Shown: positions 1-1,036 of the stretch, one piece after another | Layout: each line of letters starts with the position of its first letter | Position numbering within the stretch: the stretch's first letter is position 1 | Assembly (NCBI RefSeq): GCF_011045215.1 | Contig: NZ_CP049203.1 | Source of the DNA: Escherichia coli | GTDB lineage: Bacteria; Pseudomonadota; Gammaproteobacteria; Enterobacterales; Enterobacteriaceae | Length of the DNA: 4,727 nt | Reading direction: 5' to 3' (one strand) | Translations under genes and position numbers: made by a program | Notes under the pieces: generated by a model | What the model was told of the DNA's origin: nothing | Databases searched by the model: none | Seen by the model: the letters and a program-made list of their open reading frames with translations, nothing else

Positions 1-2
1 TA

Positions 3-39
3 GATGTATTTCATCCATAAATATAAGATGAAATACATC
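3..39 (-). repeat. Perfect 13-bp inverted repeat (stem-loop) in the spacer between the toxin and immunity candidates
   Basis: gatgtatttcatc (3-15) pairs with gatgaaatacatc (27-39) around an 11-nt loop. It lies 20 nt downstream of the toxin stop (59-61) on the minus strand. No clear U-tract follows, so it may be an attenuator or stabiliser rather than a full terminator. Confidence 0.5.
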
Positions 40-58
40 ACATATCTACAATTATATA

Positions 59-808
59 TTAACGCTTATCTCGCAACTGCGCAGCTGTATCTTTATTTCT
101 CTGATCACCTCTTTGATGTAAATTTCGATGGCTCTCTTGTGCAGCCGTCTCCCAGTCACCACGATTAACTGCAGCATTGAAATTAGGAAAATCTTTAGAT
201 AACTTAGGGATACCTAAATTAAACCCCATGTCAACCAACGCTGTTTTCCTTGAATTAGAAAAACCATCATAACCAGAATACAAAGAACGCAATCCCTTCT
301 CTGTCACTTGAACATCACTAATACATAAACCGATAACAGCATTATTTGATAAATGTAAGTTCATAGGAACTTGTCTAGAATCTTTTTTAAAATTATTAAA
401 CGCCTCTGTAATTTCCTCTTTAGATGCGGAAACCTCTTTTTCCATATCATCACCATGAGCATGCCATGTATGTGTTCTTGAAAATGGAAGGGATGCAGCC
501 ATATCAGGCGTAGATAGTAAATGACCGATTCCAACAGTAATATTTCCCTCACTGTCTTTGTACATTGTGTTTTTAAAACCTTCATGAGATTTCAAATTAT
601 TAACACACATAGTCATATAAAAACCATCATAACTCCTAGTGGAGGAAATATTTATGTGTGTCTTATCAGAAATGCCCTCATGACTATTCCCTCCAGAGTG
701 TCCACCATAGCTACTATGATTATCACCATCATAACTATGAATCGTGCCATAAGGGGTATCATGATCGTGCCATCCCGGACCTTGATTAGAACTTTCAATA
801 CCGCTCAT
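59..808 (-). CDS. Bacteriocin-like muramidase: Gly/His/Ser/Asp/Tyr-rich N-terminal region (aa 1-65) plus T4-lysozyme-type (GH24) catalytic domain (aa ~66-249)
   Basis: This is track ORF 59..898 with the start trimmed to the ATG at 808 (residue 31 of the track ORF). That ATG is preceded by AAAGAGGAAattaatATG, with GAGG 8 nt upstream. Codons 809-898 lie over the promoter and LexA box. Residues 71-100 (NLKSHEGFKNTMYKDSEGNITVGIGHLLST) align nearly residue for residue with T4 lysozyme 6-35 ([30 protein letters not shown]). E76, D85 and T91 keep the spacing of T4L E11, D20 and T26. The C-terminal RKTALVDMGFNLG...FPNFNAAVNRGDWETAA parallels T4L RRCALINMVFQMG...FTNSLRMLQQKRWDEAA. There is no N-terminal signal peptide. 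Confidence 0.85.
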   Translation of the reverse strand: MSGIESSNQGPGWHDHDTPYGTIHSYDGDNHSSYGGHSGGNSHEGISDKTHINISSTRSYDGFYMTMCVNNLKSHEGFKNTMYKDSEGNITVGIGHLLSTPDMAASLPFSRTHTWHAHGDDMEKEVSASKEEITEAFNNFKKDSRQVPMNLHLSNNAVIGLCISDVQVTEKGLRSLYSGYDGFSNSRKTALVDMGFNLGIPKLSKDFPNFNAAVNRGDWETAAQESHRNLHQRGDQRNKDTAAQLRDKR

Positions 809-849
809 ATTAATTTCCTCTTTGACTAACAAATAACAACACCACACAA

Positions 850-869
850 AACTGTGTTTATATACAGTA
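850..869 (-). promoter_or_regulatory. LexA (SOS) operator
   Basis: aaCTGtgtttatataCAGta has the CTG-N10-CAG form and matches TACTGTATATATATACAGTA at 17 of 20 positions. It lies directly downstream of the -35/-10 region and upstream of the 808 start, as in colicin promoters. I see only one box. Confidence 0.75.
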
Positions 870-898
870 TACTTACGCCTCTCCATATTCCCTGTCAA
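869..898 (-). promoter_or_regulatory. Sigma70 promoter of the bacteriocin-like gene
   Basis: On the minus strand there is a perfect TTGACA at 898..893. The -10 is weak and ambiguous: TAAGTA at 875..870 (17-nt spacer) or AAGTAT at 874..869 (18-nt spacer). It abuts the LexA box. Confidence 0.6.
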
Positions 899-1036
899 GA
901 ATATGGATTTTCATTTTTGTGATATAAATCAAAAAAAATCAATCGTGAGTAGTTCCAAGAGAAACATACGCGAACACTTCATCTAATCGAAAACGAGTGA
1001 AAGATATTTCCAAGAAAAATAAATAATAAGGGCTGC

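Follow-up and report, generated by a model that had tools for sequence, protein, structure and literature searches.

Among enterobacterial plasmids of the ColE1 type, conserved regions range from 51.7% to 59.4% G+C and variable regions from 32.4% to 52.5% (PMC5864857). ColE1 itself falls to 29–36% G+C over imm, kil and the tip of cea, next to a backbone of 50–60%, and pPCP1 of Yersinia pestis falls from 55–56% to 33–41% at pim and pst, beside the origin. The bacteriocin pesticin is a muramidase with the T4 lysozyme fold, countered by the periplasmic immunity protein Pim, and has no lysis protein (PMC3390615). The plasmid pColZ encodes colicin Z, which degrades peptidoglycan, under a single SOS box in an operon of 39% G+C against 45% for the rest of the plasmid, a difference that was read as horizontal acquisition (PMC6668396). 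The mosaicism of small plasmids has been proposed to be driven by recombination at cer-like sites, according to a passage in PMC8683028 that cites Tran 2012. Here, we describe a 4,727-nucleotide stretch of DNA from Escherichia coli (contig NZ_CP049203.1; the whole stretch is referred to as the window), in which an AT-rich block with genes for a lysozyme-type toxin and a putative immunity protein sits beside a cer multimer resolution site in a GC-rich backbone. An initial annotation, made from the sequence by eye, had pointed out this mosaic and ascribed it to horizontal acquisition from a low-GC source. We find that the mosaic is real and statistically highly significant, yet that colicin-type ColE1 plasmids are ordinarily built in this way.

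Like ColE1 and p1303_5 of E. coli 1303, the window has an RNAI/RNAII/Rop replicon and an SOS-boxed bacteriocin operon that runs toward the RNAII promoter and ends there, and its cer core matches that of ColE1 at 30 of 30 bases. In ColE1, the kil stop codon lies 9 bp from the conserved block. The window toxin is of the lysozyme type and is neither a pore-former nor a nuclease, and unlike the ColE1 relatives, the window carries no lysis, mob or exc genes. Its cargo fills the slot to within 133 bp of cer; in ColE1 and p1303_5, exc genes separate the two. The pesticin/Pim system of pPCP1 is similar in that a muramidase bacteriocin is found beside a ColE1-type origin, with a drop in G+C. However, pesticin has 357 amino acids, including a FyuA-binding domain and a TonB box, whereas the window toxin has about 65 residues before the enzyme, and the toxin and immunity genes of the window are co-directional, unlike pim and pst, which are convergent. 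The window toxin contains the muramidase domain and active site of the pesticin family, but no homology to the FyuA-binding domain or to Pim was found. Identity with pesticin was rejected (28% over 95 residues of the enzyme domain, with a marginal pairwise E = 3e-4), as was identity of the immunity protein with Pim, to which it has no detectable relation (E = 0.083). Identity with colicin Z was rejected from the published description (PMC6668396): the pColZ toxin has no relation to this one and does not resemble lysozyme, its immunity protein is a membrane protein with four helices, and the two genes are in opposite orientation. As in the window, a XerC/XerD site adjoins variable cargo in the pdif modules of Acinetobacter plasmids and in the Xer/oriT model for qnrB19 ColE-type plasmids. 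Those modules, however, have an Xer site at each end, or an Xer site at one end and oriT at the other, whereas the window has a single Xer site.

Composition and boundaries of the cargo slot

The window is a complete circular small plasmid of the ColE1 family of E. coli. A concatemeric metagenome contig (L004) spans window positions 1–4727 at 97.5% identity and runs past the 4727/1 junction, and the 159-residue protein encoded at 4204–4683 is identical to the E. coli protein QIF16539.1, which is encoded on a GenBank contig of 4727 bp. Because position 4727 joins position 1 in the circular molecule, the two AT-rich stretches at the ends of the window form one contiguous block. More than 3500 plasmids in PLSDB match the backbone, and none of them reaches 80% coverage of the window.

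Four G+C values that had been counted by hand proved to be exact (41.7% at 61–120, 28.3% at 541–600, 31.7% at 4381–4440 and 61.7% at 2401–2460). By segment, G+C is 35.0% at 1–1030, 33.4% at 4201–4727 and 53.2% at 1031–4200. A circular two-segment maximum-likelihood fit placed the change points at 1060 and 4242, with a log-likelihood gain of 76.7, compared to a maximum of 7.7 in 20 permutations; the transitions that the initial annotation had placed near 1030 and 4200 were thus right to within about 40 bp. A check of codon usage, which it had suggested, showed the contrast between cargo and rop to be stronger than in bulk G+C: the G+C content at third codon positions (GC3) is 26.0% in the toxin gene (808..59, minus strand; 37.5% G+C) and 24.4% in the putative immunity gene (4683..4204, minus strand; 34.0% G+C), against 67.7% in rop (2892..3086, plus strand; 55.4% G+C; Pfam Rop, E = 3.5e-31), which served as the reference for backbone composition.

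The suggested comparison with sibling plasmids yielded exact cargo junctions at 3993/3994 and 1115/1116. Nine complete siblings were compared for the slot boundaries, and these share the backbone and carry wholly different cargo between two fixed points. Sibling homology begins with the first base of the XerD arm of cer (1116) and ends at about 3990–4008. In an alignment of seven siblings, conservation stops after GGATCTCAAGAGGATCTTT, at a point about 11 bp upstream of the RNAII −35 element. The 190 bp on the XerC side of cer are 64–96% identical to 11 sibling sequences, and the 100 bp on the XerD side are 47–60% identical, which is the baseline for unrelated sequence. We identify the region from the outer edge of the RNAII promoter to the outer edge of the XerD arm (3994..4727 plus 1..1115) as the standard cargo slot of the ColE1 family. 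This slot comprises 1849 bp with 36.3% G+C, against 53.8% in the backbone (1116–3993), which carries cer, rop, RNAI/RNAII and the origin.

In the siblings, the slot holds other toxin/immunity pairs, a protein with an S-type pyocin domain, PAAR proteins, a nucleotidyltransferase and hypothetical genes, and siblings in which the cer accessory region is 85–96% identical to the window carry unrelated slot genes. The AT-rich block is thus toxin and putative immunity cargo beside cer, as had been proposed, in a slot that is filled by unrelated genes elsewhere. Slot G+C in the siblings is 34–55% and backbone G+C is 49–55%, so that related backbones are not AT-rich; uniform AT-richness of such backbones was one of the two findings that the initial annotation had named as speaking against its reading. 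The junctions defined by homology lie about 210 bp and about 85 bp outside the compositional boundaries (about 1030–1060 and 4204–4242), which fall inside the slot; the slot ends themselves are not AT-rich (45.2% G+C at the origin-proximal end and 44–54% over 1030–1115). The explanation that we favor, and that we consider likely as a whole, is that the window combines this standard slot with a single bacteriocin operon, an AT bias that is a stable property of that operon, and exchange by recombination in the flanks.

Persistence of the AT bias and exchange of the slot

In p1303_5 and in Klebsiella plasmids of 3.9 kb, the module formed by the toxin and immunity genes is found in the same slot and in the same orientation, and likewise ends at the RNAII promoter. 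This bears out, in part, the possibility that the module is ancestral in a lineage, which the initial annotation had named as an argument against its own proposal. The toxin and immunity genes have GC3 values of 17–29% in three plasmid lineages that differ by 20–30% in DNA, with rop at 55–68% (p1303_5: toxin 27.7%, immunity 25.6%, rop 65.6%; Klebsiella plasmid: toxin 19.9%, immunity 16.8%, rop 54.7%). Since GC3 is stable across such diverged lineages, the AT bias is a property of the module and not the fading signature of a donor. The divergence of the cargo (79% and 70% for the toxin, 68% for the immunity gene) is about that of the backbone (71–79% for the origin, 64–83% for cer), which looks like long co-residence of the module with ColE1-type replicons. 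In the unrelated cargo of one sibling (L001), GC3 runs from 68% through 62% to 37% along a large toxin gene and is 25% in the gene downstream. As part of the explanation favored here, and with the same degree of confidence, we take AT-richness to be a long-standing property of this toxin/immunity family, and more broadly of the end of colicin operons that holds the toxin tip and the immunity and lysis genes, and not the result of a recent low-GC import.

The alternative put forward in the initial annotation, that the block was recently imported from a low-GC donor and inserted beside cer by an integration mechanism that it left unnamed, draws on the strong contrast at the codon level (GC3 of 24–26% in the cargo and 68% in rop), on the siblings that carry other cargo next to cer accessory regions of up to 96% identity, and on the 210 bp at 3994–4203, which have no match elsewhere. 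However, no homologue was found in any low-GC taxon in a search of 5.8 billion proteins, of 185,579 species represented by one genome each, and of 72,556 plasmids; outside the Enterobacterales, the relatives found are distant ones in metagenome-assembled genomes of Acidobacteria, at 31–33% identity. The AT bias is equally strong in the lineages that have diverged by 20–30% and keep the module in this slot, facing the same way. ColE1 and pPCP1 have the same G+C pattern, and there are no terminal repeats, target duplication, integrase or second Xer site to go with an insertion. Of the earlier interpretation, the exchangeable slot beside cer is retained, and the low-GC donor, for which no candidate was found, is not; we regard a recent import of this kind as improbable. 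Still less credible is an assembly chimera, in which the AT-rich block would have been mis-joined to a ColE1 backbone. Several short-read contigs with the toxin do carry genes that are absent from the window (for example, for a replicase and for Hcp of a type VI secretion system), but the same arrangement is found in many independent assemblies, including the L004 concatemer at 97.5% identity and the GenBank contig of exactly 4727 bp, and the architecture has parallels in p1303_5, the Klebsiella plasmids and ColE1.

In the favored explanation, the slot holds one minus-strand operon, leading from a promoter and LexA box through the toxin gene and a hairpin to the gene for a secreted protein. 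We infer that ColE1-like plasmids exchange whole slots, or segments of the backbone, by recombination in the conserved flanks. The main route would be homologous recombination in the origin and cer regions, and Xer crossover at the cer core probably contributes. With whole slots exchanged through conserved flanks, the junctions would coincide with the edges of essential backbone elements; boundaries at the outer edges of two such elements are expected if crossovers can occur anywhere in the flanks and insertions into the elements are lost. Recombination in the backbone is directly visible in two siblings (L005 and L013): their identity to the window is about 100% from a point near 2500, across the origin and the cargo (past 4727) and up to 982, but they are mosaics of 75–99% identity across 1115–2500.

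Exchange could instead be driven by Xer recombination, if XerCD fused two plasmids at cer and a second crossover in the origin region resolved them with the slot swapped. XerC cuts at the boundary where the XerC arm meets the central region. Within the 190 bp of accessory sequence, L001 matches the window at 95.8% identity, yet it has a wholly different central region (CATCAGTA vs. TCCCTTAA); together with L005, L013 and L030, it belongs to a set of siblings with a different central region beside accessory sequences that are 87–96% identical. Matching accessory sequences next to a different center place the breakpoint at that boundary, and the L001 pattern may be a hint of crossover at the cer core, although it is not conclusive. 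In every sibling, homology breaks off at the outermost base of the XerD arm, which would also be consistent with Xer exchange, as would models of plasmid evolution by cer/Xer and oriT that are mentioned in PMC8683028, where Tran 2012 and Zakharova 2002 are cited. However, functional constraint by itself would lead one to expect this boundary, and the type of central region does not track the cargo-side flank in a sample of only about ten plasmids; co-segregation of the two was considered and rejected because the left flanks are unrelated among all siblings. Different central regions should, moreover, hinder Xer strand exchange. A scan of both strands for a XerC arm, a spacer of 6–8 bp and a XerD arm, based on five known sites, yielded no second Xer site, without which Xer alone cannot excise or insert the block. 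The best candidate apart from cer has six mismatches and lies inside the toxin open reading frame (ORF), with 0.8 such matches expected by chance; the search for an Xer-like site at the junctions that had been recommended was thus fruitless. The longest inverted or direct repeat shared by the cargo ends is 8 bp, equal to the null mean of 8, and no transposase or integrase ORF and no target duplication were found in the window. These scans agree with the earlier failure to see a transposase, terminal repeats or a second Xer site by eye, and the block does not have the makeup of a transposon, an integron cassette or a two-site (pdif-like) Xer module. We consider Xer-driven cassette exchange possible, if rather doubtful.

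Several points weigh against the favored explanation of a standard slot with a bacteriocin operon, a stable AT bias and flank recombination. The boundary pattern is compatible with both homologous and Xer exchange, and the flanks to the left of the XerD arm are unrelated even where the central region is shared. For the AT bias, there are several candidate causes, namely a mutation bias that affects mobile genes, control of expression, and silencing by H-NS. The plasmid lineage of the window has no lysis gene, nor any significant match to lysis proteins. There are just about 65 residues in front of the enzyme domain of the toxin, with no recognizable receptor-binding domain and no established TonB or Tol box, and in most copies of the immunity gene a run of nine T residues (T9) puts the ATG that is preceded by a Shine–Dalgarno (SD) sequence out of frame. 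We found no published experiment on killing, immunity or SOS induction, and no paper on the toxin family.

The toxin and immunity genes

The toxin gene encodes 249 amino acids, of which the N-terminal ≈65 are rich in Gly, His and Ser and are followed by a T4-lysozyme-like (GH24) domain that matches Pfam Phage_lysozyme (PF00959; E = 1.1e-9, 39.1 bits vs. a cut-off of 22.3). The T4 lysozyme motif with its catalytic Glu/Asp/Thr triad is conserved (alignment LKSHEGFKNTMYKDSEGNITVGIGHLL). Judging by these features, the protein would be a bacteriocin with a T4-lysozyme-type muramidase as its killing domain. Its regulatory region (809..982, minus strand) includes an SD sequence at about 814–822, a LexA box at 852–867, −10 and −35 elements, and an upstream leader that reaches to 982. 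The −35 element (TTGACA, 898–893) is separated by a 17-nt spacer from the −10 element (TAAGTA, 875–870), and the LexA box (CTGTGTTTATATACAG, of the form CTGT-N8-ACAG, with 0.06 expected by chance) is located just downstream of the latter. Positions 851–937 are 79% identical to the promoter region of the colicin E1 gene (cea) of ColE1. We describe this region as a putative sigma-70 promoter overlapped by a LexA box, which would place the toxin under SOS control. A second match to CTGT-N8-ACAG, at 3035–3050 inside rop, has a GC-rich middle and is probably fortuitous. Between the toxin stop and the immunity start there is a hairpin (3..39, minus strand) with arms of 13 bp each at 3–15 and 27–39, conserved in p1303_5, which probably acts as an attenuator or terminator.

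In the assembly collection, 107 blocks index the exact toxin protein, and the family is present on 74 PLSDB plasmids from Escherichia, Klebsiella, Enterobacter and Raoultella, where annotated copies are called “hypothetical protein”. Copies are also found on large contigs of Kosakonia and Rahnella, which are probably chromosomal. Some of the PLSDB relatives (H156–H162) match residues 52–246 of the toxin only, which suggests that the N-terminal 50 residues, the presumed uptake region, are swapped among members of the family while the enzyme domain is kept.

The putative immunity gene encodes 159 amino acids as called. Its product is a secreted protein with two conserved cysteines and has no match in Pfam, NCBIfam or PDB; the search for homologues returned near-identical sequences only, so that the assignment of the gene is based on synteny. 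A homologous gene is found directly downstream of the toxin gene in p1303_5, in the 3.9-kb Klebsiella plasmids and in a Raoultella plasmid. All homologues have the two cysteines and the motif VCKISITTGNT, and those with complete N-termini have signal peptides ending in AYA, AFA or IYA. By analogy with Pim and pesticin, the protein most likely neutralizes the toxin in the periplasm.

The start region of the gene (4680..4718, minus strand) comprises an SD sequence (GGGGGAG, 4718–4712), an ATG at 4709–4707 and the T9 tract at 4697–4689. In the T9 form, this ATG opens a nine-codon leader (MLKRFFFVQ and a stop), the TGA of which overlaps the ATG at 4683 (ATGA). One relative (L009) has ten T residues instead and encodes an in-frame protein of 168 amino acids with a canonical signal peptide, starting with MLKRFFFCAMILF; the p1303_5 homologue starts with MIKRLLF. 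The 159-residue (T9) form is found on more than 220 contigs and longer forms on about ten, and this prevalence suggests translational coupling or slippage rather than sequencing error. We also considered a bolder interpretation, that the block represents an undescribed class of minimal muramidase colicins, in which the immunity protein is made by bypass of the T9 tract, either through reinitiation at the ATGA or through slippage, and the AT-richness is kept as a means of silencing beside LexA. The protein envisaged there consists of about 65 N-terminal residues and a T4-lysozyme-like domain, with no receptor-binding domain, no lysis gene, and an AT-richness that is not inherited from a donor. 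We think this interpretation unlikely, though conceivable.

The origin-proximal end of the slot (3994..4203; 210 bp, 45.2% G+C) occupies the position of the lysis gene in p1303_5 and the Klebsiella relatives. It is specific to this plasmid lineage, and neither PLSDB nor the complete genomes of E. coli gave a match. A decayed lysis gene at 4060–4200 on the minus strand, suggested by a likeness by eye of AGTSGNYVTKAGNGWASPPS to GCQANYIRDVQGGTVAPSS, was rejected: in tblastn searches with three lysis proteins, the match had E = 11–16, and many chance matches scored better.

The cer-proximal end and the backbone

The cer core (1116..1145, minus strand) consists of the XerD arm (1116–1126), an 8-bp central region (1127–1134; TCCCTTAA on the plus strand) and the XerC arm (1135–1145), and has no mismatch to the ColE1 core at 3909–3938. 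The cer accessory sequences (1146..1335, minus strand; 190 bp, 64–96% identical to the siblings) lie on the backbone side of the junction and on the XerC side of the core, so that all the parts of a cer-type site are present: a XerC arm, an 8-bp center, a XerD arm and about 190 bp of accessory sequence. The orientation of cer is fixed relative to the origin, such that read-through from RNAII meets the accessory sequences before the core (PMC2831885). The window agrees with this, as read-through from RNAII on the minus strand reaches 1335–1146 before 1145–1116.

The spacer between the cargo and cer (983..1115) is made up of 47 bp with 23.4% G+C (983–1029), 50 bp with 54.0% (1030–1079) and 36 bp with 44.4% (1080–1115). 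The hairpin that had been noticed here is real, with 12-bp arms at 1037–1048 and 1061–1072 that are 100% complementary, and copies of AATAAGG do occur at 1025–1031 and 1080–1086. The hairpin (1037–1072) has a folding energy of −24.9 to −29.4 kcal/mol, with z-scores from −3.2 to −3.6, and is the core of a 50-bp palindromic element at 1030–1079 (GGGCTGCGTTTGGGAAACG...CGTTTCCCAAACCGCCCCC). An exact copy of this element, in which neither flank is that of the window, is found in an IncFIA/IncFIC plasmid, and there is a partial copy in a MOBP ColE1-like plasmid; the AATAA(GG) direct repeats flank the window copy, but not the IncF copy. About 566 PLSDB records match part of 930–1115, and among the 25 matches listed all fall within about 1024–1092. 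Possible identities for it are a miniature mobile element and a shared terminator, and by eye its ends (GGGGGCGGTTTGGGAAACGGAAA...) loosely resemble the terminal repeats of the Tn3 family. Two relatives (L009 and L012) are 100% identical to the window up to 982 and then differ, and four with an identical toxin gene (L005, L009, L012 and L013) have a 38-bp repeat of the Tn3 family (GGGGTTTGAGGGCCAACCGTACGAAAACGTACGGTAAG) directly beyond 982. In L005 and L013, 983–1115 is replaced by a 907-bp segment that starts with the Tn3-type repeat and reaches cer. This segment (seen in full in L013, with L005 aligning alike) contains an element of about 315 bp that is delimited by a second Tn3-like inverted-repeat pair, and an ORF of 80 amino acids. 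The 50-bp element and the Tn3-type repeats at 982–1115 suggest that small mobile-element debris accumulates at the cer-proximal end of the slot, which does not explain the origin of the bacteriocin module. We considered whether the break at 982 was a recurrent, independent junction, but rejected this because L005, L009, L012 and L013 share the same sequence beyond 982; the idea is also weakened by the fact that L005 and L013 belong to the plasmid lineage of the window itself.

At the other edge of the backbone (3835..3993), the window has the RNAI gene (3835–3942, plus strand) and the RNAII promoter (minus strand; −10 at 3959–3954, −35 at 3982–3977), a block that aligns with seven siblings and with ColE1. 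An Rfam scan of the window at gathering thresholds gave no match; in E-value mode, RNAI matched its model over the full length with 44.7 bits (E = 4e-6), which is 2.3 bits below the gathering score of 47. The window thus has the RNAI and the RNAII promoter of a ColE1-like replicon, plus the common but optional Rop gene. No mob genes or oriT were recognized in the window.

Some further features of the backbone were observed. The bins that contain RNAI and the RNAII promoter (3801–4000) are just 75–77% identical to L001, with the other origin bins at 93–100%, as would be expected if the incompatibility determinant has diverged. Just past the cer accessory region, at 1357–1591, there is a dense array of motifs of the type GCACCGT(A/T)A in both orientations, with at least six direct copies and nine inverted pairs, including arms of 26–32 nt; sibling identity falls to 75% in the bin at 1401–1500, within this array. 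A 36-nt unit (CATCGGTGGCGGTGCTACAAAACATATCCTGTCCCG) is found twice within 2323–2498, in copies that are 89% identical, 124 bp apart and each associated with 15-bp hairpins. A weak, sub-threshold Rfam match to traJ-II RNA (1791–1855, minus strand; 29.5 bits, E = 0.015) adjoins the position where siblings encode a protein of the ProQ/FinO family (1189–1563 in L001). At that position, the window has an ORF of 81 amino acids (1981–2226, minus strand) with no match to any family.

The mosaic of the window is another example of the published rule that these plasmids consist of a GC-rich housekeeping half, similar in composition to the host, and a compositionally deviant cargo half. The low G+C content of bacteriocin modules should not be taken as evidence of a low-GC donor, and the definition of the slot at the nucleotide level can help in the annotation and comparison of small plasmids. 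What is mildly new is the cargo, an uncharacterized family of lysozyme-type bacteriocins with an odd immunity start. The family is widespread in E. coli, Klebsiella and Enterobacter, where it is annotated only as “hypothetical” or “glycoside hydrolase”. As a functional analogue of pesticin, it could merit testing as a narrow-spectrum antibacterial.

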